Of a DNA stretch of 64,000 nt, positions 608-55,739 are shown one piece after another (position 1 is the first letter of the stretch; every line of letters begins with the position of its first letter). The notes below the pieces were generated by a model that worked only from the letters and a program-made list of their open reading frames with translations, made no database searches and had not been told where the DNA came from. The DNA lies in IMG/VR virus record IMGVR_UViG_3300033145_000274, positions 61,080 through 125,079 of that record, one strand, 5' to 3'. Both the position numbers and the translations under genes were made by a program. This stretch comes from a virus.

Positions 608-1504
608 ATGATGATTACCAAAATGAAACGTTTTGACGGTGGTGAAGGTAACGTATGGAAGTACGTCGTCCATTTTGATAAGCCGACACCAGCCATTGCT
701 GAAGCCGTATTATATCGCTATGGTTCCTTCAACGAACGCACGGTTGCGTGTTGTAGCGTGCAAAGCGGTTGTCCGGTCGGTTGTACGTTCTGTGGTACAG
801 GCAAGAAGTTTATTCGCAATCTGTCTACTAGTGAGATAGTGCAGCAAGTCATTGAGGTTTTCAAAGACCAGGGCATTGCTGATATTAACGACAACTGCGC
901 CAAGCTACAGATTATGTTCATGTCTATGGGTGAGCCGTTTCTGAATTACAACAGCGTGAGCCTAGCCATAGAACAACTGCATGATTTGTATCCCAATGCC
1001 GAACTCCTGGTATCAACCATAGCTCCTATGAAACCCATGAACTTGAACGATTTCATCACTTTGTCTAAGCGATGCTCCAAGGTTGGCCTACAGTTTTCCA
1101 TTCATGCGTCCGATGATACAAAACGTAACGCACTAATTCCTTACAACAAGTTGTCGCTAGTTGAACTGAGGAATTATGGAACACAGTGGTGGCATAAGAC
1201 TGGGAGGAAGCCGTATATCAATTACTGTGTTACCGAAGACTTTAATTACTACGACATGCGGCGCCTGCATCAGTTATTTCCCACCAATGTGTTCAACGTA
1301 ACACTATCGGTGTTATGTTCTACAGAGGAAACCATGAAAGAGGCTGGTTATCGTGACATACAACGTATTCGTTGGATTGCCGACGAGTTTATGTCGTTAG
1401 GATACAATGTGCGTGTGTTTGACCCCGCTGGACAAGACGACATAGGTGGTGGTTGCGGCCAATTGTGGTATGTTCAACAACATCTACTAAGGAGCCAAGT
1501 ATGA
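608..1504 (+). CDS. rlmN: RlmN/Cfr-family radical SAM RNA methyltransferase
   Basis: CCSVQSGCPVGCTFC (CxxxCxxC plus preceding Cys), MSMGEP, FSIHAS, C-terminal DIGGGCGQL. Confidence 0.85.
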   Translation: MMITKMKRFDGGEGNVWKYVVHFDKPTPAIAEAVLYRYGSFNERTVACCSVQSGCPVGCTFCGTGKKFIRNLSTSEIVQQVIEVFKDQGIADINDNCAKLQIMFMSMGEPFLNYNSVSLAIEQLHDLYPNAELLVSTIAPMKPMNLNDFITLSKRCSKVGLQFSIHASDDTKRNALIPYNKLSLVELRNYGTQWWHKTGRKPYINYCVTEDFNYYDMRRLHQLFPTNVFNVTLSVLCSTEETMKEAGYRDIQRIRWIADEFMSLGYNVRVFDPAGQDDIGGGCGQLWYVQQHLLRSQV

Positions 1505-2160
1505 AAGACATGACTATTACGGCTGGTCCAGGTGATAAAGTTCGATTCTTCTTCATTGACGCAGGGCGTGATGATGATATCGAACACGCCATAAGCCACA
1601 ATTTACAGTTTGATAAGGTGTATACCATTACACGTGTTGTGGTACATAAATACACTACGCGCGTATGGCTTGATGGTATATCAACGCCCGTTGGCTTCAA
1701 TAGCGTGTTGTTTGTTGATGAACAAATTGACCGTGTTGCCTCTGCCGCTCGTCGGGCATACTACACAGACCAGGAACGTCGCACCGGCCTACCGTATGAT
1801 ACCGATAAGATAAACATCAAAGATACAATTTATGGTATTCGCGCCCTGGTGAAAGGCATCATATTTAATGACCCAATGTATGATGTACGAGATAACGAAT
1901 CATATGACATTGGCATTATGCTGATGTCGGCTCTGGTCGTTGGTCCATATTTACCAGCCCTTATTGAATTTACTGACCTGCTAGCAGAAGACCTGGCGTA
2001 TTACTTTCACATGGCCATGCAGTTCAATATATTTACGGATGATGATAAGATTGCATGTGCGTGGTTTGAGAGGGACGGCGCTATGGCTTTTCTAAGCGAC
2101 ATATGGTGTATCCAAGGTGTCCCACACAAACAATTGAGAAACGGAGGCGTAGTATTATGA
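1501..2160 (+). CDS. hypothetical protein
   Basis: ATGA overlap with upstream stop; long ORF. Confidence 0.6.
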   Translation: MKDMTITAGPGDKVRFFFIDAGRDDDIEHAISHNLQFDKVYTITRVVVHKYTTRVWLDGISTPVGFNSVLFVDEQIDRVASAARRAYYTDQERRTGLPYDTDKINIKDTIYGIRALVKGIIFNDPMYDVRDNESYDIGIMLMSALVVGPYLPALIEFTDLLAEDLAYYFHMAMQFNIFTDDDKIACAWFERDGAMAFLSDIWCIQGVPHKQLRNGGVVL

Positions 2161-2408
2161 AAATACGAAACGGTTTCGTAAGCAACAGCAGTAGTAGTAG
2201 CTTTATTGTTACAGATAAGAATCACCCATTGTGGTACTTTCTGATGGCGTTAAGCAAGGCAGGCTGTGCTGACTTTACTATTGATGAGCACAGAGTTGAC
2301 GACACATGTGATAATGGAGTATGGTTGGCTATTGGGCAGTTCAATGAGTTGGCTAACCGAAGCTTCGATTATACCGAGTTTCTCACACAAACTTCATTTA
2401 ATGGGTAA
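2157..2408 (+). CDS. FVSNSS-motif family protein (copy 1)
   Basis: N-terminus MKIRNGFVSNSSSSSF. Confidence 0.75.
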   Translation: MKIRNGFVSNSSSSSFIVTDKNHPLWYFLMALSKAGCADFTIDEHRVDDTCDNGVWLAIGQFNELANRSFDYTEFLTQTSFNG

Positions 2409-2489
2409 TGATATGAAGCGAACAAGAGCACGAAGATGAATCGTCGGACGTAGTTACTAACATGACAGTAATTTTAGAGGAGATAAACG

Positions 2490-3620
2490 ATGAGTAAAAT
2501 AGTTGTTAAAGTCTGTAAAATAGACGAAATCATACCGCATGGCAATGCCGATGCGTTAGAAGTAGCTTGTGTTGGTGCATGGACAACCTGTGTCAAGAAG
2601 GATGTATTTGCCGCAGGTGACCTGGTGGTCTTTATTCCTCCCGATGCTATTCTTCCAAAAGAATTACATGAGCATTTGGGTATCACTCAGTATTGTGGTG
2701 AAATGCCGCAGAGTAGTGGAGAAGCTGAGCAAGGAAAGAGACGTGTGCGAGCTACACGTTTGAGGGGAGTGCGGTCGTTCGGTACTCTAATGACCATAGC
2801 TGATGTAGTAGAATACTTCAGGTCGGTACATGGTCATCCTCCTTCTCATTGTTATCCTTTTATGGAGGGCAACGAACTTTCTGTGTTGCTTGGCATCACC
2901 AAATATGAACCACCAGAGAAGATTCGCCAGGGTGACCAAATGACCCCACATGCCTTGTTTCATAAGTACACAGACATAGAACGATATCAAAACTTTCCTT
3001 CCTTGCTTAAAGAAGGTGAGGAAGTGGTTATTTTGGAGAAAATCCATGGAACCAATTGTCGTGTTGGTCTGGTGATGACCGATGTGGGTCTTACGTTCAT
3101 GGCTGGTTCACACAATACACGTCGCAAAGCAGTGGATACCATAGGTCACAATTCGCTTTATTGGAAACCACTTGACGAATCTATTGCAGACATGAAGGGC
3201 TTATTGGAATATGAGCAGCATGAGCGAGAAGCCGTGTCTATCATAGTGTTCTGTGAAATTTATGGTCCTGGCATTCAGGATATGCAATACGCCGGATATT
3301 TAGCATACCGAGTATTTGATATTGCTGTCAATGGTGAATATCTAAACTGGGATGATGTAGAGCGCATCTGTAAGGCTCATGCCGTTCCAACAGTGCCGGT
3401 ACTCTATCAAGGTCCATTTAGTGAAGAGGTATTGATGGAACATACTGATGGCAATACTCAAGTATGCGAAGCCGTTACTGGTAAGTTCAAGGGTCGCGAA
3501 GGGTGTGTCGTAAAGCCCATTGTTGAACGACAGGATTTTGACATACCAAGTGGTCGAGTTATTCTCAAGAGTGTGGGTGCGGATTATCTCAACAGGAAAG
3601 GTGGTACGGATAACGCATGA
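2490..3620 (+). CDS. ATP-dependent RNA ligase (DRB0094/Rnl2-like) with N-terminal OB-type domain
   Basis: EKIHGTN adenylation motif, CEIYG, VFDI, REGCVVKP, ILKSV; N-terminal HGNADALE OB-like region. Confidence 0.85.
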   Translation: MSKIVVKVCKIDEIIPHGNADALEVACVGAWTTCVKKDVFAAGDLVVFIPPDAILPKELHEHLGITQYCGEMPQSSGEAEQGKRRVRATRLRGVRSFGTLMTIADVVEYFRSVHGHPPSHCYPFMEGNELSVLLGITKYEPPEKIRQGDQMTPHALFHKYTDIERYQNFPSLLKEGEEVVILEKIHGTNCRVGLVMTDVGLTFMAGSHNTRRKAVDTIGHNSLYWKPLDESIADMKGLLEYEQHEREAVSIIVFCEIYGPGIQDMQYAGYLAYRVFDIAVNGEYLNWDDVERICKAHAVPTVPVLYQGPFSEEVLMEHTDGNTQVCEAVTGKFKGREGCVVKPIVERQDFDIPSGRVILKSVGADYLNRKGGTDNA

Positions 3621-4000
3621 TGAATCTGTATAACAGGGCTGTATACTGGCCAGATGTAGTGGAGCGTGCTATAAATGAAGTGACTGCCGAAGCTCAGCTT
3701 CATCGCTGTTATTATGGCGACCATGCTAAAGCAGAAGCGCAACAAGACCGTTTTGGTCGTATCGTGTTGCCGTTACATTTGCCCGTGGTAAGTGAGGATA
3801 TATTTGAAGCAGAACTCACTGGTGGGGGTAGGTTACATAAATTCCTGACGCGAATACCCCTAGACCAAAGTCGAGATATTGTTATGGTGTTAGTGCCACG
3901 TGGACCTGGTCACCTGTTTTGTAAGACCGTGTGGATAAATCATACGTATGACCACCACCAGACTCTCAAGCGCGAGCACTATATTCAAGAACCGGCTTGA
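3617..4000 (+). CDS. hypothetical protein
   Basis: ORF coupled to ligase stop. Confidence 0.6.
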   Translation: MMNLYNRAVYWPDVVERAINEVTAEAQLHRCYYGDHAKAEAQQDRFGRIVLPLHLPVVSEDIFEAELTGGGRLHKFLTRIPLDQSRDIVMVLVPRGPGHLFCKTVWINHTYDHHQTLKREHYIQEPA

Positions 4001-4024
4001 CAAAGTCGAAAAATATGCTACAAT
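3997..4024 (+). promoter_or_regulatory. sigma70-like promoter
   Basis: TTGACA-16nt-TACAAT with TGn extension. Confidence 0.75.
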
Positions 4025-4033
4025 GGAGAAGTT

Positions 4034-4459
4034 ATGAAACAACGAAACGGTTTTGTTAGCAACTCGTCATCGGCTGCTTATGTCCTTAGCAAAGATGTAT
4101 ACCCAACTATTTGGGACGTGGCTATCGTCATGCTAACCACAAGAGACGTGGACCATGACGAGACACTTGGCAAGGACCATGGTTTCGACGATGGTGAATT
4201 GGAACGTGCAGTACGTAACTTAGATACGGGTGTCAATGCAACAGCCATTACATTCTCAACGTGTAACTTTGCAACATACATTTGGGACGCAGGAGATTCG
4301 TGGTGGGTAAGTACCTGTACTAATCATCCATTCTATCAACTGTTTTGTGATGACGGGGCGTTTACATCAACTACTGTGCCATCACCATATGTAGATTACG
4401 ACGTAATGGGTTTTATCGAGTTCAAACTAGAAGACTATTGGGACTTTGTTGAGGTTTAA
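4034..4459 (+). CDS. FVSNSS-motif family protein (copy 2)
   Basis: MKQRNGFVSNSSSAAY. Confidence 0.75.
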   Translation: MKQRNGFVSNSSSAAYVLSKDVYPTIWDVAIVMLTTRDVDHDETLGKDHGFDDGELERAVRNLDTGVNATAITFSTCNFATYIWDAGDSWWVSTCTNHPFYQLFCDDGAFTSTTVPSPYVDYDVMGFIEFKLEDYWDFVEV

Positions 4460-4461
4460 TC

Positions 4462-4860
4462 ATGCGTACACGACACGGTTTTGTAAGTAACTCATCTGTC
4501 ACCAGTTTCATTATTGGTATCAAACGGGTAGCCGAGGTATGTCCCAGTTGTGGGCGTGGTGGTGAAGACTTGCTAAAGATATTAGATAGACACAACCATG
4601 AAGAAACAACGATGGAGTGGTCGGATGTTGATGCACACATTGCACAGCTACGTGCTAACATTAAACATTGCAGGTGGCAGGGCTGGGTTGATGAGGCTAA
4701 CGCATACCAGCAGACAGTAGATATGTTAGTTGAAGCTCAACAGCGTGATTTTCTTCAAATCATAGGTGTAGACATAAGTCATCACGACCCAGTCATGGAT
4801 AAAACACTTGATGACATGAAGCGCAGTGGTGATATTACAATTCTACAAGGAGACGAGTGA
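4462..4860 (+). CDS. FVSNSS-motif family protein (copy 3)
   Basis: MRTRHGFVSNSSVTSF; CPSC motif. Confidence 0.75.
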   Translation: MRTRHGFVSNSSVTSFIIGIKRVAEVCPSCGRGGEDLLKILDRHNHEETTMEWSDVDAHIAQLRANIKHCRWQGWVDEANAYQQTVDMLVEAQQRDFLQIIGVDISHHDPVMDKTLDDMKRSGDITILQGDE

Positions 4861-5960
4861 TGATGTATCCATATATGATACAGGATGATGAGCAGGTTAA
4901 AAACCTATGTAGCCCTGACTACTCGTTTCATTTCAACAAGCAAACCGGCTTCTTTGCCAGGTGGGGTAAAACCATTAACAAAGCCGATGACCCACAATGG
5001 AGTCCGTATGGTCCCGAGATTCTTGATTTAGAAATTTCTACTGGAGAATGTAAGGGGCGATGTAAGTTCTGTTACAAAGAGAACGGGCAGCCAAAGGCTG
5101 CAACCCAACACATGACGTTTGCTACATTCAAAGATATTCTGAGTAGAATGCCACCCACCTTGACGCAGATAGCATTAGGAATTACTGACGTAAAAGGTAA
5201 TCCAGATTTCTTTAGAATCATGAGACATACTCGTGAGCAAGGAATCATCCCTAATTACACGACACATGGGCTAGATATGGACACATACGATGCAGACTTG
5301 ACTGCTGAACTGTGTGGTGCAACGGCGGTTTCGATTGTTAATAAAGAAAAGGCATACGATACCATAAAGATGCTCACTGACCGTGGTATGGACCAGGTTA
5401 ATATCCATTGGATGTTATCAGCCGAACGTATTGACGCCGCTATGGCATTGATAGATGACATTAAAAGCGACCCTAGATTGGCGAAGCTCAATGCGGTTGT
5501 TTTTCTGCAATATAAACCTAAGGGTAGTAACGCTGACTCATTCAGTACGCCGTCTATGACGCGCTTCAAAGAACTGATTGAATACTGTGACGAACATGAG
5601 GTTAGGTATGGCTTTGACAGTTGTACTGCACCAATGTACATGCGTGCCATCCAGGGACATCCCGATGCCGAACAATTAGAACAGTGTGTTGAGCCTTGTG
5701 AGAGCGGGTTGTTTTCGTCGTACATCAATGTTAATGGCGATTTCTTTGCTTGCTCATTTTGTGAAGGCGAAGCCGGTTGGACTGAGGGTATCAGCGTATT
5801 GGATTATGACAACTTTGTGGACCTGTGGCGTTTGCCGCGACTGGATGAGTGGAGAAAAATCCTACTCGCCAATCAACGCGCTTGTCCCATGTATGTACTA
5901 GGAGATGGTTCCAGTGGAAAACTATACGGTGTGGCGTTATCCGATAAAGCTAACGTCTAA
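4857..5960 (+). CDS. radical SAM protein with C-terminal SPASM/Twitch-like Cys cluster
   Basis: CKGRCKFCY; YTTHG; C-terminal CESG..YINVNGDFFACSFC..CPMY. Confidence 0.85.
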   Translation: MMMYPYMIQDDEQVKNLCSPDYSFHFNKQTGFFARWGKTINKADDPQWSPYGPEILDLEISTGECKGRCKFCYKENGQPKAATQHMTFATFKDILSRMPPTLTQIALGITDVKGNPDFFRIMRHTREQGIIPNYTTHGLDMDTYDADLTAELCGATAVSIVNKEKAYDTIKMLTDRGMDQVNIHWMLSAERIDAAMALIDDIKSDPRLAKLNAVVFLQYKPKGSNADSFSTPSMTRFKELIEYCDEHEVRYGFDSCTAPMYMRAIQGHPDAEQLEQCVEPCESGLFSSYINVNGDFFACSFCEGEAGWTEGISVLDYDNFVDLWRLPRLDEWRKILLANQRACPMYVLGDGSSGKLYGVALSDKANV

Positions 5961-6240
5961 GATTGCACGCGCACAGAAATCCGTAATGCTTAAAGTGCCA
6001 ACCGGTGCAAAGCTGTTGTCTGTGGGATTAACTCCATGGCAATACAACGCAGTCCAACTATGGTTCATGGTAAATTCAGAAGTAACATCAACCACATTTG
6101 TGGAAGTGTTGATTATGGAAACTGGCGTGGCCATGGTATCAAAAGAAATGATGGAGCGATTGACGTTTGTGGGGACAGTAACAACCGTTGCTAAAAAGGT
6201 GTATCACGTGTTTACCGTATGTACAGAAGAAAGAATATGA
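5905..6240 (+). CDS. hypothetical protein
   Basis: ORF overlapping neighbours. Confidence 0.55.
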   Translation: MVPVENYTVWRYPIKLTSKIARAQKSVMLKVPTGAKLLSVGLTPWQYNAVQLWFMVNSEVTSTTFVEVLIMETGVAMVSKEMMERLTFVGTVTTVAKKVYHVFTVCTEERI

Positions 6241-6689
6241 TGAAAATACGACATGGCTTCGTAAGCAATAGCAGTAGCAGTGGATTTGTGGTGCGCATGT
6301 GTGGTTGGTTGACCACGAAAGAACGTTTTCTTACACCTGAGCAAGAAAGCATGTTACGTGAATATGGTTTTCAGCCCTCAAGATATTCGTATGCTAGTCA
6401 AGTAGAAGCGTCGCAGGGAGATGCTAAAGCCCCGACGCCATTGGATAGCGATGCACTGTTCTATTATGTAGTGTGTAATGAGCAAAGCGTAATAGCGTGG
6501 TTGGTTAAAAATCGTATTCCGTTTCACGCCTCGACACACTACAGTCATCAGACTATCATATATGATGGCAAGGGTACAAAGATTACCGAGATTCCTAACT
6601 ATGGACTGTTAGCTGAAATGCATGGCATAGAGCACTTAACCGAAGAGTTTCCAGACAAAGACCTTAACATAGAAAGTTATGAACCATGA
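6237..6689 (+). CDS. FVSNSS-motif family protein (copy 4)
   Basis: MMKIRHGFVSNSSSSGF. Confidence 0.75.
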   Translation: MMKIRHGFVSNSSSSGFVVRMCGWLTTKERFLTPEQESMLREYGFQPSRYSYASQVEASQGDAKAPTPLDSDALFYYVVCNEQSVIAWLVKNRIPFHASTHYSHQTIIYDGKGTKITEIPNYGLLAEMHGIEHLTEEFPDKDLNIESYEP

Positions 6690-6961
6690 AAGCATTAGTA
6701 AAGTATGTGCGTGGCAGTAAGAACAGTCGAGTCGGTGTTGTTGTGGCCATTGGCCGAGGTCAGGTCGGTTGGAGCCGGTGTAATAATCGCCTGGATACCT
6801 TCGACAAACAACGTGGACTAGTTATCGCCATGGGCAGAGCAGGTGCGTATTGCAATGTCGCCATGACTGCCTTGGAGACCATACCTTCCAGCATGAGAGA
6901 TGCTGTTATGGACATGCACAATAGGTCTCAACGTTACTACAAAGAAGGAGCACAGTCGTGA
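6686..6961 (+). CDS. hypothetical phage protein
   Basis: ATGA-coupled ORF. Confidence 0.6.
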   Translation: MKALVKYVRGSKNSRVGVVVAIGRGQVGWSRCNNRLDTFDKQRGLVIAMGRAGAYCNVAMTALETIPSSMRDAVMDMHNRSQRYYKEGAQS

Positions 6962-7368
6962 AAATTCGCCATGGTTTCGTAAGCAATAGTAGCTCCAATA
7001 GCTTCACATGTGATATCAGTGGTCGTACCAAATCGGGTTGGGACTTCAGCCTAGACGATGCTGATATGTATATCTGTGAAAAGGGTCATGTTATGTGTGG
7101 GCATTACGTACGTGACTTCATTACGGACTTAGTAGCCAAGGGTGATGTTGACGCTGTTATACAAAGCATTGAAGGACTACGTATCGTGCCAACCAGCATG
7201 TGTCCCATATGTCAACTCAAGTATATATCGGAGGAGAATATACTGCGCTACCTATGTGCGCGTCGGGGCCAAACATATGATGAAGTGCGCCAGGCCATTG
7301 GAGATGATTACGGTGATGCGCCCGAGGAATTTTACGAGTTTATCGACATTGTTGAAAAACGGCCTTGA
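6958..7368 (+). CDS. FVSNSS-motif family protein (copy 5)
   Basis: GTG start, KIRHGFVSNSSSNSF; CxxxH..C and CPIC motifs. Confidence 0.75.
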   Translation: MKIRHGFVSNSSSNSFTCDISGRTKSGWDFSLDDADMYICEKGHVMCGHYVRDFITDLVAKGDVDAVIQSIEGLRIVPTSMCPICQLKYISEENILRYLCARRGQTYDEVRQAIGDDYGDAPEEFYEFIDIVEKRP

Positions 7369-7393
7369 CAAAATTCAAGTCGTATGCTAGAAT
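7365..7393 (+). promoter_or_regulatory. sigma70-like promoter
   Basis: TTGACA-17nt-TAGAAT, TGn. Confidence 0.75.
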
Positions 7394-7447
7394 GGTCGAT
7401 AACACGGGTGAGCACTAACTTTCAAACTTTTGTTGAAGGACACAAGA

Positions 7448-9595
7448 ATGATAACCAAACCCAAACACTTTGTTCAAAGAGATGGTGGTAAGTTTGTACG
7501 AAAAGAATTTACAATTGCCGCCACACCAGAAGCCTTCAGAATACTTAGTGACGGCTTGTATTCTAAAAAAATTGAAGCCGTAATACGTGAACTCAGTACA
7601 AACGCCGTCGATGCACACATCGTGGCTGAAAATGATGATGTATTTGAGGTTCACCTACCGTCGTTTGAAGAACCCTGGTTTGTCGTTCGAGATTACGGCA
7701 CGGGCATGTCACATGATGATGTGATGGACCTTTATTCCACGTATTTTGGAACTAATAAGGCAGACGACCTAAACACGACCGGATGTTTGGGTCTTGGGTC
7801 CAAGTCTCCACTGGCTAAGGTGCGGTCCTTCACCGTTGTATCGCGTTTTGACGGCATGGAACGTCACTATATCGTAACACTCAATGAAGACCGTATTCCC
7901 GAAGTTGACCACCTGGTTGAACAATCCAAGCCCACTACCGATAGCGGCATGGAGATTCAGATGGCCGTGGCAACCAGTGATATTTCTGAGTATATTCGCA
8001 AAGCTGCTCAGGTATACTTCCATTTTGATGCTCAGCAACGACCACGTATTATCAATGGGCGTAGTTATGAGTTGTCCAAACCAGAGATTCTAATCGAAGG
8101 TACTGGATGGCGCATGTATAAGGGTGCGGGTACTCCCGTGGCCGTACAAGGTAGTGTTGGTTATCCAATTGCATCTGCACAAATCAAACACATCAAGCCC
8201 CATCATGAAATGGTCTTGTCGTGCAATCTGGAGATTGATTTTCCCAATGGTAGTGTTCACTTCACTCCATCACGTGAGCATCTGTCGTATGATAAAACCA
8301 CATGTCGGTCATTGACCAGTCGTTTGGATAAAATTGTAAGCGAAGTCAACGACATGATTGGTAAACGTTTCGACACATGTACCACATTGTGGGAAGCGCG
8401 TACGTTAGCCTATGATATGTTTTGGACCAATAGTGCCGACCTGCGTCATCTACACTCACTGGCTGAGACTGGTGAGATTACTTGGAAGGGTCAAAAGATT
8501 GCTGGAAAACAGTTGTCTTTCAGTGACATACAAGGAGTGGCGGGTTGGTCGTTTGAAACACGACGAAATCGTAATAACTATTGGGATAAAAACACCAAGG
8601 TATCACGAAATGAACGTAGCATTTTCACCCCACGTGGTAATGTGGTGTGGTGCGAAACAGATATCCCGCGTGGTAGCTATTCCCGATGTCATCAATACAT
8701 ACAAGACCATCAAGATACGTGTATATACCTGGTAAGTTTCAGTGCGCCCAAGGCACGCCAAGAGTTCTGTGACGAAATGGGACTTGACGGCACGGAGTTC
8801 ATTAAAACCTCTACCATGCCAAAGCCTGTTAGCACACGCAGTGGCAGCGGTAAGCTGCATCGGTCCACCTCGTTGGTCTACAAACATATAGGAGGCGTCC
8901 ATCGTACCCGTTTGTATCAGTATTGGAAGAAAACCGAAGTAGACCTGGATAACGGTGAGGGTGGTGTATATGTCGAGATGAAAAACAACAAGGTTGTCAA
9001 CCCTCAAGGTCACCGGGTTGAGCCCACTGTGGTTTCCACGTTGGTAAGCCTACTCGATGACGTTGGACAAGAACATATTGAGGTTATCGGCGTACGTCCC
9101 CAGGTTGCCAAACGGTTTCGTAAGTCGGACGACTGGGTAGACCTCTTTACATACGCACGCCACGTTGTTGAGATTGAAGTTGTGCAAAAGCAGTTGGCAC
9201 AACATATCGTCAATGCCGAACATTTGCGTGATTTGACCAACAGCAGCATATGGTGTTCAATGATGCAGAAAGCAGATGCACTTGGTAAGCTAGACAAGAC
9301 CATGGCTTTGCATAAGCTCATTGAAGACCTACAACACATGCAGAAGTCCAATGATGCCTGTCGTGCTTATTCGCATTGGCGCACACTAGCCACAGAATGT
9401 GGTGTTAGTTTGGACGACGTAGAACCCGAACGTTATATCAGCGTGTCAATTGAAAACATGTATAGTCAGTATCCTATGTTGGAACTGATTCTGGATATAA
9501 AAACCTCTAATTACCATCATCATCCTTTTCAAACCAATGAACTTCAACACATACGGCATTACGTAAGTTTGGTAGAATCTCAGAATTGCGGTTGA
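7448..9595 (+). CDS. rIIA: rIIA-like protein (N-terminal GHKL/HATPase domain)
   Basis: LSDGLYS..IRELSTNAVDAH, VRDYGTGMS, STYFGTNK, GLGLGSKSP-like motif, FTPSREHLSY; precedes rIIB-like gene. Confidence 0.8.
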   Translation: MITKPKHFVQRDGGKFVRKEFTIAATPEAFRILSDGLYSKKIEAVIRELSTNAVDAHIVAENDDVFEVHLPSFEEPWFVVRDYGTGMSHDDVMDLYSTYFGTNKADDLNTTGCLGLGSKSPLAKVRSFTVVSRFDGMERHYIVTLNEDRIPEVDHLVEQSKPTTDSGMEIQMAVATSDISEYIRKAAQVYFHFDAQQRPRIINGRSYELSKPEILIEGTGWRMYKGAGTPVAVQGSVGYPIASAQIKHIKPHHEMVLSCNLEIDFPNGSVHFTPSREHLSYDKTTCRSLTSRLDKIVSEVNDMIGKRFDTCTTLWEARTLAYDMFWTNSADLRHLHSLAETGEITWKGQKIAGKQLSFSDIQGVAGWSFETRRNRNNYWDKNTKVSRNERSIFTPRGNVVWCETDIPRGSYSRCHQYIQDHQDTCIYLVSFSAPKARQEFCDEMGLDGTEFIKTSTMPKPVSTRSGSGKLHRSTSLVYKHIGGVHRTRLYQYWKKTEVDLDNGEGGVYVEMKNNKVVNPQGHRVEPTVVSTLVSLLDDVGQEHIEVIGVRPQVAKRFRKSDDWVDLFTYARHVVEIEVVQKQLAQHIVNAEHLRDLTNSSIWCSMMQKADALGKLDKTMALHKLIEDLQHMQKSNDACRAYSHWRTLATECGVSLDDVEPERYISVSIENMYSQYPMLELILDIKTSNYHHHPFQTNELQHIRHYVSLVESQNCG

Positions 9596-9619
9596 CTTTT
9601 GCAATCTACATGCTATAAT
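9592..9619 (+). promoter_or_regulatory. sigma70-like promoter
   Basis: TTGACT-16nt-TATAAT, TGn. Confidence 0.75.
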
Positions 9620-9667
9620 CTATAGAACGGGTGATGACCAGTCACCCATCGAACCCCTGATAGGAGA

Positions 9668-10699
9668 ATGAACATGTCTTCAATTCACTCAATTATGTCT
9701 GGCGATGGTACTATCTGTTTGGTTGTGGATGGTAAGCACTACACTGTGTCTGTCACTCACCCATCATACCACGAGATGCGTGAACTGATACTCGCTAGAC
9801 CTCTTAACGAGCCAGCCTTGTTACAAACGTTGAACATCACCGACAAGATTGCCCACTTGCTGGAGGGTAAGGTACGTGTTGATTTGGAAGAGGGCAAGGT
9901 CTGGTACAACGATACTGAGTTTCACGACCCGGCATTCTGTGAACGCATACTACGACTTATGTCGGAAGGTCAGGATGTATCCTACTTGGTTAACTTCTTG
10001 AACAACCTTGGCCAGAACCCTGAGTTCCGTGCCATTATGGAAACCTTCAAGTTCATCTGTCAGGAAGGTATGCCCATTACTCCCGACGGCTGTTTCCTGG
10101 GCTACAAGGGCGTGCGTGATGACTTCTATGATGAGTGGAGTGGGACCATAGACAATACCCCTGACGGTCGTCGTGTAGAGTATGACCGGGCCAAGGTCTG
10201 TAACAATCCTAACAATTCTTGTGCTCAGGGATTGCACGTTGGGTCTCATCGCTATGCTAGTAACTGGTCACAGCGCGTAGTTCTCGTAAAGGTTAATCCC
10301 AAGGACGTTGTTAGTGTTCCTAACCATGATTGCGAAAAGATGCGTGTTTGTGGTTATTGGATACTGAAGGAGTTCGGTAAAGACCGTGATGTCCTCAAGG
10401 GTGAAGTTTATGACTCGACCGGACAACGTGTTGAGGGTTCTGTATTTACAGAACTGGAGGAACGCGGTCAGTTCGACCATGATGTGGCTTCACACTGGGA
10501 TGACGAAGAGGGTCGTACGTACGCCGATGGCCTGGAAGACGGGCGTGATGACGATATCGAGCCCGAACCTGAGTTCTGCGATGAATGTCGTGAACTGGTT
10601 GAAGACTGCATATGCGAGGACTTATGTCCAACGTGTGGTATGCTGGATTGTGAGTGTGATGATAACTACGACCCTTGGGGAAAAGACGACGATGACTAA
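9668..10699 (+). CDS. rIIB: rIIB-like protein with acidic Cys-rich tail
   Basis: ITPDGCFLGYKGV, CAQGLHVGS..YA, VKVNPKDVVSVP, KMRVCGY. Confidence 0.8.
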   Translation: MNMSSIHSIMSGDGTICLVVDGKHYTVSVTHPSYHEMRELILARPLNEPALLQTLNITDKIAHLLEGKVRVDLEEGKVWYNDTEFHDPAFCERILRLMSEGQDVSYLVNFLNNLGQNPEFRAIMETFKFICQEGMPITPDGCFLGYKGVRDDFYDEWSGTIDNTPDGRRVEYDRAKVCNNPNNSCAQGLHVGSHRYASNWSQRVVLVKVNPKDVVSVPNHDCEKMRVCGYWILKEFGKDRDVLKGEVYDSTGQRVEGSVFTELEERGQFDHDVASHWDDEEGRTYADGLEDGRDDDIEPEPEFCDECRELVEDCICEDLCPTCGMLDCECDDNYDPWGKDDDD

Positions 10700-12124: not shown

Positions 12125-12186
12125 TAAGGGCTTAGGAACCTTCCTTGTCGTGATTTTTTTTGACACGAATAACCGGAGACAAACCA

Positions 12187-13830
12187 ATGAACAAGAATCT
12201 ATTTCAGAATCGTGGTATTCAGCGTGGCGTTCCTACGACAGACAGCCTGAACGCAGCCGGTGGAGCCGCCTACCGTTTGGACGACAAGAGCGCCCTAGCG
12301 CAATACGCGGTCACAGGGACGTTTCAGGACACCTTTTATGTGGGTGCTCAGGACCATTTGCATAATGTCGAGGCATTGGCAGCAGGTTGCGAAGCTGAGT
12401 TTATTGCCAAGCTCGCCGTCTACGCACGCGAACGAGGTAAAATGAAGGACATGCCAGCGTATCTCTTGGCTGTCCTAGCCGCGCGTGGCGAAACCGACCT
12501 GGTAAAGCGTATCTTTTCGCGTGTGTGTAACAATAGCAAGGTGCTATTAGGTTTTGCTCGTATCATTCGTTCGGGCGCCACTGGTCGTAGTTCGTTCGGT
12601 ACTGCTATGAAGCGACTAATCCAAGATTGGATTACAGACAAGAGTAATAAAGGTCTGTATGTATCTAGTATTGGTCATAGCAATCCGTCAATGGCGGACC
12701 TTATCAAAATGGTACATCCACGACCACGGGATAATGAGCAGTCGGCGATGTTCTCCTACCTTTTGGGTAGGGAATGTGACCACGACCTGTTGCCCGAAGA
12801 TATTCAGATATTTGAAAGGCTAAAGCGTGGCGAAGCCATGCGCGGTGGCACGTCATTCGGACCATCCGACAAGATGCCCGACATTCCATTTCGAGCGCTT
12901 ACAAATTGCGACCTCAGCGCAGCACAATGGCGCGATATTGCTCTGAACATGCCCTGGAACACCCTGCGTCAATCCCTCAACCTTTTGAGTCGTCGCGGCG
13001 TATTTGATGACCTGGGTGTTGTGCGCAACTTGGCCGTGAAACTAGCCGATGAAGAAAACGTGATGCAATACAATGCTTTTCCGTTTGAACTACTGGCAAC
13101 GTGGAAGGCCACAAAGGACCAGGTACCGGTAGAGATTTCTAATGCTCTACAAGAAGCCATGGAAGTAGCTACGCGCAATGTGCCGAAGCTTCCTGGTGAA
13201 ACCCTGTTGGCAGTAGATGTTTCTGGCTCCATGTGTGGTGCTGCCATTACCGGACGTAGCGCCAAGCCATCCATCGTAACGGTTGTAGAATGTGCGTCTC
13301 TTATTGCGTGTGCCCTGCTACGCAACAACAAGTCGGCCTCGTTGATTGGATTTGACAGTGCTCGATATCCGTCTTATCGTCCCAAGGGTCGCTTGGCCGG
13401 CGAGGGTGGTATCTATGTTATGGACCACATCAATCCGTTTGATAGTGTGATGACTAACGTGTCAAAAATGAATCATAGTGGGGGTGGCACTGACTGTTCA
13501 CTACCATTTCAATACTTGTTGGCTAACACTCGTGCCGTAGACAACATCATCATATTGTCAGACTATGAGAGTTGGACTTCGACCTATCGTACCGCTGGTG
13601 GTGCCGCAAGCTGTGAACAATGGCATAGATATTCGGCCAATCACAAGAAAACCAAGTTGGCCTGTGTGGACCTACAACCACAAGATACAACGCAAGTGCC
13701 CGACCAACCAGGTCGTGTAATTAACATCGGCGGCTGGAATGACCCCATGTTTCGTGTATTGGGCGATTTCTTTAACCGTAACGACAACATTGACTTCGTG
13801 ACCGTGATTGAAGACAGTGTTGAACTTTAG
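12187..13830 (+). CDS. rsr: Ro60/Rsr TROVE-domain RNA-binding protein with C-terminal vWA domain
   Basis: NAAGGAAY, GTFQDTFY, MKDMPAYLLA, vWA MIDAS DVSGSM, GGGTDCSLP, IILSDYESW. Confidence 0.9.
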   Translation: MNKNLFQNRGIQRGVPTTDSLNAAGGAAYRLDDKSALAQYAVTGTFQDTFYVGAQDHLHNVEALAAGCEAEFIAKLAVYARERGKMKDMPAYLLAVLAARGETDLVKRIFSRVCNNSKVLLGFARIIRSGATGRSSFGTAMKRLIQDWITDKSNKGLYVSSIGHSNPSMADLIKMVHPRPRDNEQSAMFSYLLGRECDHDLLPEDIQIFERLKRGEAMRGGTSFGPSDKMPDIPFRALTNCDLSAAQWRDIALNMPWNTLRQSLNLLSRRGVFDDLGVVRNLAVKLADEENVMQYNAFPFELLATWKATKDQVPVEISNALQEAMEVATRNVPKLPGETLLAVDVSGSMCGAAITGRSAKPSIVTVVECASLIACALLRNNKSASLIGFDSARYPSYRPKGRLAGEGGIYVMDHINPFDSVMTNVSKMNHSGGGTDCSLPFQYLLANTRAVDNIIILSDYESWTSTYRTAGGAASCEQWHRYSANHKKTKLACVDLQPQDTTQVPDQPGRVINIGGWNDPMFRVLGDFFNRNDNIDFVTVIEDSVEL

Positions 13831-31987: not shown

Positions 31988-33082
31988 ATGAATGCACAAT
32001 ATACCTGGCCACTCAATGATAATCATTTTTCATTGATAGATAAGCTACAAATTGCCTACTTTATTCTCAATCCAAAAAATAGATGGACAGAGGACAGGCG
32101 CGTACGACAATTAGAGAACGTCTGGGCAGATATTACTGGATATAAGTACGTTGTGGCCACTAACAGTGGCACATCTGCAATAGAATTGATGGCGCGTGTA
32201 TATAGAGAAATGCACGGTGTGGGAACAGTAGCGGTCCCCGCAGTAACATGGCCAACGTCTGTTACTCCATGGATACACGCTGGTTATACGCCTGTGTTTA
32301 TTGACATTGACCTCAAGACCCTGTGCATGTCCGAGACGGACTTAAAAAATAAACTGAATGGTCAGAAAGCAAAAGTCGTCTTTCCAACATCTGTGCTGGG
32401 CTCACACTGTGAGACAGCTACGCTAAAACCCTACGGCACATTGATAGGCGTAGATAATTGTGAGTCAAGCTTTAGTCTCGTAGATTGTCACGAGACATCC
32501 GTCACATCGTTATACTTTGGACATCAATTTACTACCGGCACAGAAGGTGGATTATTATTCACAAACTGCCAGGAAGAATGTAGATTAGCCGTTCATATGC
32601 GCGGACACGGTATGACCAGTTCGTGGGCTAAATATAACAATGAACCGTGTGAAAAATTTAAGTTTGCAGTTATGGGTTCAAACTATCGTAGTAATGACAT
32701 CGCAGCATACATGGGCCTGATGGACATGCGTAAGTTTGAACACAAACAACGACACAGGAATGCTTTGTATAATGTATTCTGTAGAAATATACGTAAGGAA
32801 TACCAGCTATTTAACTTGCGCGGCCCATTTGCTTTGCCAATCATAACTAGTGTAGTTCCACGCGCAAGCCTGATACGCACGGTTGAAGCATTCGGTATCG
32901 AAACTCGCCCCATTATTAGTGGTAATATACTGCGACAACCAGCATTTCAGCAGTATGATAATGGTTCCTGTCCCAATGCAAATTATATACATGACCATGG
33001 TTTTTATGTTGGACTACACGAGGGGGTACCAACGCGAGACATAGTCATGTTAACCGATGTGCTCAACGAAGCATTTTCATAG
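31988..33082 (+). CDS. DegT/DnrJ-family PLP enzyme, ColD-like 3-dehydratase
   Basis: TNSGTSA, DNCES, SLYFGHQFTTGTEGG (His at the usual PLP Lys position), ETRPIISGN. Confidence 0.8.
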   Translation: MNAQYTWPLNDNHFSLIDKLQIAYFILNPKNRWTEDRRVRQLENVWADITGYKYVVATNSGTSAIELMARVYREMHGVGTVAVPAVTWPTSVTPWIHAGYTPVFIDIDLKTLCMSETDLKNKLNGQKAKVVFPTSVLGSHCETATLKPYGTLIGVDNCESSFSLVDCHETSVTSLYFGHQFTTGTEGGLLFTNCQEECRLAVHMRGHGMTSSWAKYNNEPCEKFKFAVMGSNYRSNDIAAYMGLMDMRKFEHKQRHRNALYNVFCRNIRKEYQLFNLRGPFALPIITSVVPRASLIRTVEAFGIETRPIISGNILRQPAFQQYDNGSCPNANYIHDHGFYVGLHEGVPTRDIVMLTDVLNEAFS

Positions 33083-45901: not shown

Positions 45902-46507
45902 ATGGAAAGACGCAACTTTATCAAGTGGGTAGCCGCAATGTTGCCCGCTACGCTAGCTACTAAGATGGTGTCAAAACAAGCAGACGCGGCTCCGCAACCC
46001 ACACCAGCATCACAGGTGTACCCGAAGACTGTGAAAGCACCATCAATGTTGAAGGCTCGACGCCACACACAGATGGTGTACGACCAGGGCTTTTGTGACT
46101 GTCCGGCTGAACGTGGTATGGTCGTAGAATTTGCCAAGTTTATTCCCAGTCCTAGCGGCGGACAATATCCTATTGTAAGACCTGGCTCTCATAGCGGACA
46201 GCCGTTGGGGATATTATTGCAGGATGTAGTACACATAGATAATACAAAGTTGTGTAATGTAATATCAGACAGAATACCCGTTGGTGGACGGGTTGATATA
46301 GGCATAGACGGCTGGGTTATAGTTGGGCAATTTGATAAGCCCGTAGAAGACGGTGAACGGATATTTTATGATAGGGTAGGACGTTTAACCACCGTGTCAA
46401 CTGGACGACCTATTGGCGTGGCCATTGGTCCTAGTGATGCAGATAACTTTGTCAAAGTAAAGATACAACTCTATGTCAACACAAATGCCGAACTGCCCAG
46501 ACCTTAA
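45902..46507 (+). CDS. twin-arginine-signal protein with capsid-decoration-like domain
   Basis: MERRNFIKW; PLGILLQDVVHID, GGRVDIG, GRLT, DADNFVKVKI. Confidence 0.5.
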   Translation: MERRNFIKWVAAMLPATLATKMVSKQADAAPQPTPASQVYPKTVKAPSMLKARRHTQMVYDQGFCDCPAERGMVVEFAKFIPSPSGGQYPIVRPGSHSGQPLGILLQDVVHIDNTKLCNVISDRIPVGGRVDIGIDGWVIVGQFDKPVEDGERIFYDRVGRLTTVSTGRPIGVAIGPSDADNFVKVKIQLYVNTNAELPRP

Positions 46508-47579
46508 TTATACCGCACCCATCAACTCACTAGGATATGGCGTGGCGGGTTTGAATATCTTGCTAGCCTTAGCAGAGAAGGGTGTGAAGGTCAAATTATG
46601 GCCAATAGGACAGATAGACGCACATCCAAAGCACACGCTCGTATTACAGGAAGCCCTGGATACTCGTCATTGTTATCGAATCGACGCCCCCAGCTTACGT
46701 ATCTGGCATCAATATGACTTGGCACAACATGTAGGTAGCGGTGTCCGTGTGGGATTTCCTATATTTGAACTAGATAAATTTAATGCAATAGAACATGCGG
46801 AACTCTGTGCCATGGATGTCTTATGTGTGTGTTCAAACTGGGCTAAGGGCGTGGTGTTGAGAAACTGTCCAGAGATTCCCCAATTTGCTATTATCGTAAC
46901 ACCGCTGGGGGTGGACAGAACTACTTTTCATCACGAAAATGCTGGAGTATCGGACCCCAAATGGACGACGTTCTTAAATATCGGCAAGTGGGAATATCGT
47001 AAGGGGCATGACATTCTCATAGAGGCATTCAACAAAGCGTTCGAGCCCAAGGATAGAGTACGCCTCTGGATGATGAATCATAATCCATTCTTATCGAAAC
47101 AACAAACCAAAGAGTGGGAAGACCTGTATACCAAATCCAAAATGGGACATCGTGTGAGTATCCTACCACGGGTACAAGACCATGCCGAGGTGGCTAAGGT
47201 TATGTCCGAAGCTGATTGTGGTGTATTTCCATCACGTGCCGAGGGCTGGAATTTAGAGTTGCTTGAAATGATGTCAATGGGTAAACAAGTTATTACCACC
47301 AACTACTCTGCTCATACTGAATTTTGTACTACAGATAATGCACATCTCATTCCTATTGACGAATTAGAACATGCATATGATGGTCACTTTTTTACTGACG
47401 ACGACGCCGGTCAATGGGCGACTCTCGGTAGTACCCATGTGGATTGTTTAGTAGACCACATGCGCAACATTCACAAAAACAAACAGCAGATTAACCACAG
47501 TGGCATTGCTACCGCCAAGGAGTTTTCATGGGCAGCCACCGCACAAAAAATTCTAACAGTGGACCAAATTTGGGCTTGA
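46473..47579 (+). CDS. GT4-family glycosyltransferase
   Basis: GKWEYRKGHDIL, FPSRAEGWNLELLEMM. Confidence 0.88.
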   Translation: MSTQMPNCPDLNYTAPINSLGYGVAGLNILLALAEKGVKVKLWPIGQIDAHPKHTLVLQEALDTRHCYRIDAPSLRIWHQYDLAQHVGSGVRVGFPIFELDKFNAIEHAELCAMDVLCVCSNWAKGVVLRNCPEIPQFAIIVTPLGVDRTTFHHENAGVSDPKWTTFLNIGKWEYRKGHDILIEAFNKAFEPKDRVRLWMMNHNPFLSKQQTKEWEDLYTKSKMGHRVSILPRVQDHAEVAKVMSEADCGVFPSRAEGWNLELLEMMSMGKQVITTNYSAHTEFCTTDNAHLIPIDELEHAYDGHFFTDDDAGQWATLGSTHVDCLVDHMRNIHKNKQQINHSGIATAKEFSWAATAQKILTVDQIWA

Positions 47580-49128: not shown

Positions 49129-50547
49129 ATGGATTTCAATAATAACATTTGCATGTTGACAGATTCCTACAAAATGACCCACTGGAGACAATACCCACCA
49201 GGTACCACCAACGTATACTCTTATTTTGAGAGTCGTGATGGTGCTCGCTGGCGCAAGACGGTATTCTTTGGCCTGCAATACTTCTTGCAACGTTATCTAG
49301 TTGGTCAGGTCGTAACAGTTGATATGGTCGAGGATGCGGCCCGATATGCCAAGTTACACTTTGGTGCTCAGTTGTTTAACTATGATGGCTGGATGGACAT
49401 TGCTAAGACCCACAAGGGCCGCCTGCCCCTGTGTATTAAAGCCGTCCCAGAAGGCACGCCTGTTCCCGTTAGTAACGTAATGATGACCATTGAGGCTACC
49501 GACCCAGACCACGCATGGCTAACCAACTACATGGAGACGCTGTTGGTTAATGTATGGTATCCTTGTACGGTGGCTACTCAGAGCCGTGAGATGAAAAAGA
49601 TATGGCTACGCTACCTACAAGAGACCGGCGACCCACAAACAATTGATTTCAAACTACATGATTTTGGTTGTCGTGGTGTGACATGTCCCGAACAAGCCGG
49701 TTTGGGTGGCGCGGCCCACTTGGTAAATTTCAAGGGCACCGATACTCTGCCAGCAATCGTATTGCTTGACCAGTATTACGATGAAGAAATGGCTGGTTTT
49801 TCCATCCCCGCCAGTGAACACTCAACCATTACAAGTTGGGGCAAAGACAATGAAATAGACGCCATGCGTAATATGCTTCGGGCCTATCCAGAAGTCCCAC
49901 TAATTGCATGTGTAAGTGATAGCTATGATATTTGGGATGCCTGTGCCAATAAATGGGGTGGGGTACTCAAGGATGAAGTGTTAAGCAGGAAAGGCACACT
50001 GGTAATACGACCAGATTCGGGTGACCCCCCATCGACGGTCAAGCGTGTAATTACTACGCTTATGAAAGCCTTTGGGTATGAAACCAACGACAAGGGATAT
50101 GACGTATTGCCTCCACAAGTACGAGTAATTCAGGGTGATGGGATTGACTTTGAAATGATGCCCCGTATCCTAGAAACCATGAAAGAAGATGGACTGTCGG
50201 CTGATAATCTGGCTATGGGCTCTGGTGGTGGGCTTTTGCAAAAACTCAATCGTGATACACAAAGGTTTGCATTCAAGTGCTCGGCTATTGAGGTCAATAA
50301 CCAGTGGCGAGATGTCTATAAAGACCCGGTAACTGACGCTGGTAAAAGGTCCAAGCGTGGTAGAATGAAGTTAATCATGGAAAGAAGTAGTCATGGTTCA
50401 TGGCTTAGTACCACACCCGACCTAGACTCACGCACTGATATAATGCAAATTGTATTTCAAAACGGTCGTTTGAAGAAACAATATGACCTAGAAACCGTTA
50501 GAACAAACGCGACCATTCATCCGTGGGAGTTGACCGGAGTTCTCTGA
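49129..50547 (+). CDS. nadV: nicotinamide phosphoribosyltransferase
   Basis: TDSYKMTH, LHDFGCRG, PASEHST, VSDSYD, IRPDSGDP, IQGDG, GSGGGLLQK, KDPVTD.GKRSK. Confidence 0.95.
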   Translation: MDFNNNICMLTDSYKMTHWRQYPPGTTNVYSYFESRDGARWRKTVFFGLQYFLQRYLVGQVVTVDMVEDAARYAKLHFGAQLFNYDGWMDIAKTHKGRLPLCIKAVPEGTPVPVSNVMMTIEATDPDHAWLTNYMETLLVNVWYPCTVATQSREMKKIWLRYLQETGDPQTIDFKLHDFGCRGVTCPEQAGLGGAAHLVNFKGTDTLPAIVLLDQYYDEEMAGFSIPASEHSTITSWGKDNEIDAMRNMLRAYPEVPLIACVSDSYDIWDACANKWGGVLKDEVLSRKGTLVIRPDSGDPPSTVKRVITTLMKAFGYETNDKGYDVLPPQVRVIQGDGIDFEMMPRILETMKEDGLSADNLAMGSGGGLLQKLNRDTQRFAFKCSAIEVNNQWRDVYKDPVTDAGKRSKRGRMKLIMERSSHGSWLSTTPDLDSRTDIMQIVFQNGRLKKQYDLETVRTNATIHPWELTGVL

Positions 50548-55448: not shown

Positions 55449-55739
55449 ATGCATATTAGATGTGGATTTGTGAGCAATAGCTCGACGACTAGCTTTTCTA
55501 TCTTTGGTTCTATCACTTCGTTGAGTGAGGACGAATGCGATTTGCTTGCCGAGGCTAAGAAGCTGGGATTGGAAGTACACCATGGCTATGAAAACACTTA
55601 CCTGGGTGTATCATGGCATGAAATTGGTGATGATGAAACGGGCCGACAATTCATGGATAGGGTTGCAACAGCCGTGAATGAGTTAGACCCACAGGCAGAT
55701 GAATGTGGACATTGTGAAGAAGCATTTAGGGATGGTTAA
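55449..55739 (+). CDS. FVSNSS-motif family protein (copy 6)
   Basis: MHIRCGFVSNSSTTSF. Confidence 0.75.
   Translation: MHIRCGFVSNSSTTSFSIFGSITSLSEDECDLLAEAKKLGLEVHHGYENTYLGVSWHEIGDDETGRQFMDRVATAVNELDPQADECGHCEEAFRDG

Follow-up and report, generated by a model that had tools for sequence, protein, structure and literature searches.

A 64,000-nucleotide (nt) stretch of IMG/VR virus record IMGVR_UViG_3300033145_000274 (positions 61,080 to 125,079; hereafter the window), which makes up the latter half of one 125,079-bp contig of an uncultured phage, encodes a radical S-adenosylmethionine (SAM) enzyme together with six proteins that begin with a common N-terminal peptide, here called the tag. Enzyme and tag form a two-part system without a third component, which recurs in hundreds of genomes of phages and bacteria, among viral contigs, assemblies of cellular genomes and phages in culture, including the laboratory phages RB43 and KP15, and is apparently undescribed. 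From sequences and structural models, we lean towards the enzyme modifying the N-terminal tag by radical chemistry, the mark staying on the whole protein.

Tag copies in the phage genome

Six plus-strand open reading frames (ORFs) of the window open with an MKIRxGFVSNSS-like peptide, in which Met1, Arg4, Gly6, Phe7, Val8, Ser9, Asn10, Ser11 and Ser12 are invariant. The tagged ORFs, whose products carry net charges of -4 to -15, and the enzyme gene are as follows.

2157..2408, plus strand: tagged ORF c2157, 83 amino acids (aa), net charge -4; tag at residue 1, GGAGG-like site upstream
4034..4459, plus strand: tagged ORF c4034, 141 aa, net charge -15; body with 15 tagged homologues in other loci
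4462..4860, plus strand: tagged ORF c4462, 132 aa, net charge -8; body with 5 tagged homologues elsewhere
4857..5960, plus strand: radical SAM enzyme, 367 aa; PHROG 7293, E 1.6e-80
6240..6689, plus strand: tagged ORF c6240, 149 aa, net charge -6; body with 16 tagged homologues
6958..7368, plus strand: tagged ORF c6958, 136 aa, GTG start, net charge -8; tag, zinc-ribbon-like module and helical bundle
55449..55739, plus strand: tagged ORF c55449, 96 aa, net charge -13; body with 57 tagged homologues

When the window and the entire 125,079-bp genome were scanned in six frames, exactly these six copies came up, every one at the start of an ORF, against a mean of 0.02 tag motifs in 100 Markov-randomised genomes, and purine-rich ribosome-binding-like sites lie upstream of all six starts. 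The six ORFs reported in the preliminary description of this DNA are thereby confirmed, with one adjustment: the tagged ORF placed at 6237 is real, but its start is taken here as 6240, with the Met one codon upstream (6237) and 6219 as alternative starts. Five of the tagged ORFs flank the radical SAM gene within 5.2 kb, as had been noted, and from c4034 through c4462, the enzyme gene and c6240 to c6958 the genes abut or overlap by 4 nt, the end of c4462 overlapping the enzyme start by 4 nt. The sixth copy, c55449, is dispersed, 49.5 kb from the enzyme.

Serine codons of the tag alternate between AGY and TCN among the window copies, so the tag is conserved as protein and not as DNA, which shows that selection acts on the peptide. 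A DNA-level repeat or recombination site was excluded by these differing codons and by the DNA identity of only 86% between tag pairs within a locus that have identical first 12 residues.

Linkage between the enzyme and the tag

The linkage was assessed from both directions. A degenerate DNA pattern covering the first 12 codons of the tag, run over viral contigs, yielded at least 118 loci with 350 tagged ORFs, many of the loci being fragments, and each ORF of this genome was used as a query against them. The enzyme matched 49 of the 118 listed motif loci and the next untagged gene only 4; the median gap between the enzyme and the nearest tagged ORF was 290 nt, with both on the same strand in 48 of 49 cases. 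Only 3 of the 69 listed loci without the enzyme have at least 5 kb on both sides, and many of their contigs carry the enzyme elsewhere (e.g. L124).

Conversely, a profile built from 32 enzyme homologues retrieved 80 loci with 10 kb flanks, and tagged ORFs were found in 72 of them by a strict regular expression and in 4 more with variant spellings (Lys3 or His7). These loci hold 1-11 tagged copies each, 305 of 306 on the enzyme strand, and the nearest copy lies downstream of the enzyme in 62 of the 72 loci (median gap 420 nt). The enzyme family is rare, with at least 201 confirmed stretches in 2.9 million viral contigs, a pattern-based lower bound.

The same association was found outside the viral contigs. 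In cellular assemblies, sampled as one genome per species, the tag occurs in 116 stretches; the enzyme was found in 73 of the 116 corresponding 8-kb loci, on the strand of the tag in every case and with a median gap of 27 nt. Of 50,697 records of cultured phages, 173 contain the enzyme, and two tagged proteins of Cronobacter phage GAP161 are found in 174 and 175, with almost identical counts per genus; RB43, KP15, KP27, Miller and Margaery are included. The tagged genes of GAP161 lie 20-24 kb from its enzyme, like the distant sixth copy of the window. Co-occurrence of the tag with radical SAM genes, anticipated in the preliminary description, is therefore strong both ways in all three collections.

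De novo clustering of co-directional ORFs from 68 distinct enzyme-anchored loci identified the enzyme as the sole universal family. The eight families ranking after it consist entirely of tagged bodies, untagged families reach at most 6 of the 68 loci, and no conserved protease, exporter or second enzyme was found in them.

The enzyme

The CxxxCxxC motif of the SAM-binding [4Fe-4S] cluster is formed by Cys65, Cys69 and Cys72, invariant in an alignment of 32 homologues, which also holds four more invariant cysteines (Cys256, Cys281, Cys299 and Cys343). The piece Cys281-x12-Gly-x4-Cys299 is typical of SPASM and Twitch domains, whereas the phage enzyme lacks the full seven-Cys SPASM signature (PF13186/TIGR04085: CX9-15GX4C, CX2CX5CX3C and C, for two auxiliary clusters), since the CX2CX5CX3C block is missing from the phage homologues, though kept by bacterial sister enzymes described below. 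It scores 18.7 bits against Pfam PF04055, below the gathering cut-off of 29.5, and has no match to Pfam SPASM at E <= 1.

The AlphaFold model of the enzyme has a mean predicted local distance difference test (pLDDT) score of 90.5. Its closest structure is SuiB with bound precursor peptide (Z 24.7, root-mean-square deviation 3.2 A over 309 residues), followed by SkfB (Z 22.6), both ranking above anSME (Z 19.8), CteB, PqqE and ChlB (Z 18.8; the group being around 19); viperin also reaches Z of about 19. The alignments with SuiB and SkfB begin at model residues 9-13. The Z scores against SuiB (24.7) and against anSME, PqqE and viperin (about 19) make the radical SAM fold clear despite the sub-threshold Pfam score, and the model gives the enzyme a peptide-maturase-like fold. 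The four invariant auxiliary cysteines, the CX12GX4C piece and the match to SkfB would fit a Twitch-type enzyme, in which, as in BtrN, SkfB, MoaA and TqqB, a shortened SPASM domain binds one auxiliary cluster. The enzyme looks to be a truncated, Twitch-like relative of SPASM proteins and is not the canonical SPASM-type protein of the preliminary description. Three homologues (L033, L031 and L039) have one in-frame stop codon each under translation table 11; they could be pseudogenes, sequencing errors or cases of stop-codon recoding.

Conserved positions of the tag and co-variation with the enzyme

The tag comprises about 16-18 residues, always from residue 1. Across 495 non-redundant tagged ORFs, Met1, Lys2, Arg4, Gly6, Phe7, Val8, Ser9, Asn10, Ser11, Ser12 and Ser15 are near-fixed, Phe or Tyr occupies position 16, and hydrophobic residues fill positions 17-18. 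Substitutes of Phe7 are almost all aromatic (His 5, Tyr 3, Trp 1, Leu 1), and at one locus all four tags have His7. The two positions on either side of Phe7-Val8 (6 and 9) co-vary: Asp6 is always paired with Thr9 (42 of 42 tags), and Asp6-Ser9 was never seen. The tag holds the aromatic-x-x unit of triceptide substrates, as Phe7-Val8-Ser/Thr9, and its consensus has neither Pro nor the sulfatase motif Cys/Ser-x-Pro-x-Arg. A glycyl-radical motif (Arg-Val-x-Gly-Tyr/Phe) was considered and rejected, Arg4 lying two and not three residues before Gly6, which is Asp in 42 tags; the enzyme model matches the pyruvate formate-lyase activase with Z of only 13.6.

Enzymes without the CX2CX5CX3C block (120 loci, median of 3 tags per locus) occur with Gly6/Ser9 tags in 360 of 388 cases, whereas full-SPASM enzymes (30 loci, median of 1 tag) occur with Gly6/Thr9 tags in 29 of 36, kinship being ignored in both counts. 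Tags are also more alike within a locus than between loci (0.809 vs 0.787; 0 of 1000 shuffles reached the observed value, again ignoring kinship). By these counts, the spelling of the tag tracks the enzyme clade.

Bodies of the tagged proteins

For the 764 tagged proteins collected, the medians are 134 aa for length and -8 for net charge. Stripped of the tag, the window bodies fall into separate BLAST components, and hhalign comparison of seven tag-free body families gave a probability of at most 1.6% in 20 of 21 pairs, in agreement with the unrelated C-terminal bodies of the preliminary description. Other carriers include a leucine-rich-repeat (LRR) protein, zinc-ribbon proteins and proteins of 630-811 aa. 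Pfam, NCBIfam, PHROGs and PADLOC gave no family for any tagged body, and the c2157 body has no homologue among the 764 tagged proteins. Only residues 1-24 of two of the six window copies align with PHROG 7397, a 170-position profile, which therefore has the tag in common with them and not the body.

A single-sequence search with the c6958 body returned only itself, while its tag-free profile reached 1,924 representative clusters at 50% identity, of which the best 150 all carry the tag or a near variant from residue 1. In the AlphaFold model of c6958 (mean pLDDT 88), residues 1-10, its best-conserved stretch, average 57 and residues 13-17 are a strand of the zinc-ribbon module; given the low pLDDT of residues 1-10, the front of the tag looks exposed in this model. 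Foldseek with the same model found only weak zinc-finger resemblances, a protein atlas search returned only unannotated viral clusters, and tblastn of c6240 against cultured phages gave nothing useful.

The bacterial sister form

The cellular loci comprise two forms. In the phage-like form, the enzyme is 45-60% identical to that of the window and several tagged ORFs are present; in the bacterial form, the enzyme is about 30% identical and usually accompanied by one tagged protein of 132-137 aa. As in the phage form, the homologous enzyme and the homologous tag of this bacterial sister system are adjacent and on the same strand, but in contrast to the phage enzyme, the canonical SPASM cysteines are retained in the sister enzyme, which scores above the SPASM cut-offs of Pfam and NCBIfam. 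At the two loci examined from isolates, Veillonella parvula (L226 342-7998) and Acetatifactor muris (L205 1-7997), the sister system stands in a conserved five-gene operon, in the order metallo-beta-lactamase-fold protein, protein of about 950 aa (with a weak trypsin-like domain in the L226 copy only), ORF of about 140 aa, 137-aa tagged protein, and radical SAM/SPASM enzyme. The phage form lacks the metallo-beta-lactamase-fold and ~950-aa genes. This looks like an undescribed conflict-type operon; a DMP19-like protein adjoins it in L226. A known defence system was considered and rejected: PADLOC gives the bacterial enzymes a generic radical-SAM-core likeness to viperins, and the tagged proteins nothing.

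Two further observations concern the cellular bins. In L239 (2640-3908), on a contig binned as Promethearchaeota, a 423-aa tagged LRR protein adjoins an enzyme homologue. Several contigs with many tags among metagenome-assembled genomes, in Nanoarchaeota, Patescibacteria and Omnitrophota bins, may be mis-binned large phages.

Proposed mechanism and alternative explanations

The system comprises one enzyme and a portable N-terminal tag of about 18 residues, found on a number of phage proteins that are small, acidic and in other respects unrelated. In the mechanism proposed here, a new tagged protein would offer its exposed N-terminus to the enzyme, and Lys2, Arg4 and strand-forming residues would dock the tag, akin to SuiA on SuiB. 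Cleavage of SAM would then give a 5'-deoxyadenosyl radical that abstracts hydrogen from a side chain within Phe7-Ser12, with a presumed single auxiliary Fe-S cluster as the putative electron acceptor, and the covalent change would be kept on the mature whole protein, no leader being removed. The two likeliest products would both lower the mass by 2 Da: a three-residue cyclophane between Phe7 and the C-beta of Ser9, as in triceptides, or the oxidation of a Ser to formylglycine, as by AtsB. The aromatic requirement at position 7 and the co-variation of positions 6 and 9 point to Phe7-Val8-Ser9, which is built like a triceptide motif (PMC11499958), as the probable modified unit, and AtsB-like Ser oxidation (PMC10114670) would be the main alternative. 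Binding, hydrogen-abstraction site, product and effect of the modification on the proteins are what we infer within this scheme.

Several points weigh against modification of the tag by the enzyme. Co-occurrence by itself would fit a substrate or a binding partner alike, and the association between clade and spelling may reflect few independent events. Part of the tag may be structural, residues 13-17 being a confident strand in the one model at hand. No curated maturase family is matched by the enzyme, which scores 12.7 bits against the WgkB model (cut-off 650) and comes nowhere near the cut-offs of other maturase models. Lastly, some long but incomplete viral records hold tags with no detectable enzyme, and tagged copies can sit 20-50 kb from it.

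The most serious alternative, which we nevertheless consider rather unlikely, is that the tag binds the enzyme unmodified, as a docking handle, the tagged proteins being interchangeable subunits, adaptors or determinants of specificity, that aim the catalytic subunit at host proteins, nucleic acids or small molecules. One enzyme with as many as 11 tagged proteins per locus, and binding-type modules among the bodies (zinc ribbon, LRR repeats), would suit such adaptors, and the exposed N-terminus and the match between spelling and clade fit binding as well as catalysis. Yet every one of the closest relatives with a solved structure acts on the peptide or protein to which it binds (PMC10114670), near-invariant Asn10, Ser11 and Ser12 with an aromatic-only position 7 are stricter than a usual docking strand, and in bacteria the ratio is mostly one enzyme to one tagged protein. 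The tag might instead be an independent signal for sorting, packaging, degradation or secretion by other machinery, the enzyme being a co-regulated neighbour. T4 internal proteins have a common capsid-targeting N-terminus, and their loci are similar in the common N-terminus, unrelated bodies and clustered polymorphic genes; some tagged copies also sit far from the enzyme. This explanation appears improbable in view of the two-way linkage in phages and bacteria at gaps of tens to hundreds of nt, of a tag spelling that follows the enzyme clade, and of a tag with neither a hydrophobic signal-peptide core nor a Leu/Ile-x-Glu protease site; moreover, no other gene recurs beside the tags.

Asn-Ser junctions serve intein-type and pyruvoyl-type self-processing, and with Asn10 and Ser11 invariant, autocatalysis at this junction (by succinimide formation or N-to-O shift) could free or activate the body without the enzyme. 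We give this little credence: it leaves unexplained both the obligatory enzyme linkage and the conservation of Lys2, Arg4, Gly6 and Phe7 upstream, and the Foldseek search with the c6958 model found no self-processing-like fold. Equally hard to credit is a tag excised and matured into a small molecule or cofactor, like PqqA or MftA, with the bodies as carriers; the SPASM relatives PqqE and MftC do build cofactors from peptides (PMC10114670), and many gene copies could raise the yield, but no peptidase or tailoring gene recurs, the bodies form conserved families of their own (one with 1,924 clusters), and some tagged proteins reach 630-811 aa. Finally, a single diverged paralogous family, with the N-terminus as the best-conserved strand of a common fold, would account for residues 13-17 being a strand of the body in the c6958 model and for all tagged copies being small and acidic. 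It is largely refuted by the hhalign results, by the presence of the tag on LRR, zinc-ribbon and 700-800 aa proteins, and by the low confidence of residues 1-10 in the same model.

Modification of the tag remains the favoured reading. Of the roles offered for the motif in the preliminary description, a common tag for putative modification by the enzyme fits best, docking to one partner is less probable, and self-processing at the Asn-Ser junction found no support; the possibility raised there, that the motif is merely a strand of a shared fold, does not hold, given the unrelated bodies, the LRR carrier and the contrast in pLDDT between residues 1-10 and the whole model (57 vs 88). A leader in the sense of RiPPs, peptides that are made on the ribosome and modified after translation, also proposed, is unlikely because no protease or exporter recurs.

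Genomic context in the window

Other features around the tagged genes are listed below.

608-1504, plus strand: second radical SAM gene, with the look of an RlmN/Cfr-type RNA methyltransferase (NCBIfam RlmN, E 2.7e-30)
2490-3620: RNA ligase gene
3997..4024, plus strand: sigma-70-like promoter match (11/12, TG extended -10) just upstream of c4034, of uncertain use
7430-10699, plus strand: homologues of rIIA (721 aa) and rIIB (343 aa), immediately downstream of the tagged genes
55742-56785, plus strand: DUF6395 protein (E 4.7e-25) containing Ser-Gly-Gly-x-Asp-Ser, a PP-loop-like motif, and starting 3 nt after the end of c55449

The gene run c4034-c6958 is bounded by two sigma-70-like sites matching 11 of 12 positions (3997-4024 and 7365-7393, consensus matches only), the second of which is a strong site preceding rIIA. 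At the first, the -10 hexamer ends 10 nt before the c4034 ATG, with GGAG in between, so its use is uncertain; an mRNA starting from it, if used, would by its position be almost leaderless. In T4, rIIA and rIIB are early genes, and with their homologues following the tagged cluster, early expression of the cluster is plausible by analogy.

None of the other genes emerged as a partner of the tag. The RNA ligase placed in the cluster by the preliminary description is a real gene, but it is no recurrent neighbour and was rejected as a partner, being present in only 4 of the 118 listed motif loci; the RlmN/Cfr-like gene, whose RlmN match is well below the curated cut-off, was rejected likewise, being found in 0 of 118. 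The ORFs lying between tagged genes (3617-4000, 5905-6240 and 6686-6961) do not recur beside the enzyme in other loci, nor does the DUF6395 protein recur near tags there. Auxiliary genes of the window include a nicotinamide phosphoribosyltransferase (49129-50547, E 1e-159), a glycosyltransferase (46473-47579), an aminotransferase (31988-33082) and an RNA-binding protein (12160-13830, Ro-like PHROG 850). Against phages, megablast with the window's first 12 kb gave no match.

Significance

Radical SAM/SPASM enzymes have so far been associated with the maturation of short peptides (RiPPs) and of a few dedicated proteins. If the proposed modification is real, the present system would represent a third mode, in which numerous unrelated whole proteins are served by one enzyme by means of a portable tag at their N-termini. 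The system is common in uncultured phages, one body family alone accounting for 1,924 clusters at 50% identity, and cultured phages of the RB43/KP15 group carry it in genes annotated as hypothetical. Small acidic phage proteins, possibly expressed early, would then form a functionally linked group, and the tag, if sufficient by itself, could be a genetically encodable handle for enzymatic protein modification.

A broader and more doubtful proposal, offered tentatively, is that phages, including cultured T4-like enterobacterial ones, have a dedicated radical SAM enzyme that gives a whole group of acidic proteins, early and directed at the host, an identical covalent mark at the N-terminus (a strained cyclophane or an aldehyde). 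It would be the protein-level counterpart of RiPP chemistry, and the mark could be a cap against proteases or a reactive warhead during host takeover or counter-defence, with the bacterial sister in an undescribed conflict operon.

Comparison with known systems

The best structural match, covering nearly the whole model including the N-terminal region, is SuiB/StrB, the radical SAM/SPASM Lys-Trp cyclophane synthase that acts on SuiA to give streptide. In both systems the enzyme gene lies beside the gene of its substrate (proposed, in the phage), but the phage enzyme is only about 14% identical to SuiB and is missing the second auxiliary cluster's CX2CX5CX3C cysteines. Unlike SuiA, the phage partners are complete proteins (83-811 aa); as many as 11 occur at one locus, their conserved segment starts at residue 1, and neither a protease nor an exporter accompanies them. 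The same holds against RiPP precursors in general, which are short, lose their leader and have a protease or exporter in the cluster, whereas the tagged carriers have a median of 134 aa, reach 811 aa and contain folded bodies.

Triceptide synthases, among them FxsB of the FxSxx-COOH system (Haft and Basu 2011, as cited in PMC7159879), form aromatic-to-C-beta crosslinks on aromatic-x-x motifs and accept any aromatic residue (PMC11499958). The phage system is similar in the Phe7-Val8-Ser9 unit of the tag, the aromatic swaps at position 7, the co-variation of positions 6 and 9 and the match to ChlB (Z 18.8), yet the enzyme is no member of triceptide maturase families by WgkB and other maturase models. 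The nearest published idea found is that of Kaur et al. (PMC7159879), in which an FxSxx peptide at the C-terminus has a radical SAM-SPASM partner. It differs in position, substrate and enzyme family, the Fxs motif being C-terminal on short peptides, whereas the phage tag is N-terminal on folded proteins and its crosslink hypothetical. No paper describing the system was found in the literature on this enzyme in RB43/KP15-type phages, and searches on motif strings gave nothing apparently relevant by title and abstract.

Two further SPASM-type systems act on whole proteins. The anaerobic sulfatase-maturating enzyme (anSME/AtsB) oxidises the C-beta of Ser or Cys in a short motif of its sulfatase targets (PMC10114670); the likeness lies in the structural match (Z 19.8) and the Ser-rich tag, but anSME has two auxiliary clusters and reads the sulfatase motif, which is missing from the strictly N-terminal tag with its many unrelated carriers. 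QhpD acts on a single dedicated substrate, QhpC, through Cys-based thioethers, whereas the phage tag has no conserved Cys; these thioethers are crosslinks within a dehydrogenase subunit, and the modified target stays a functional protein (PMC10114670).

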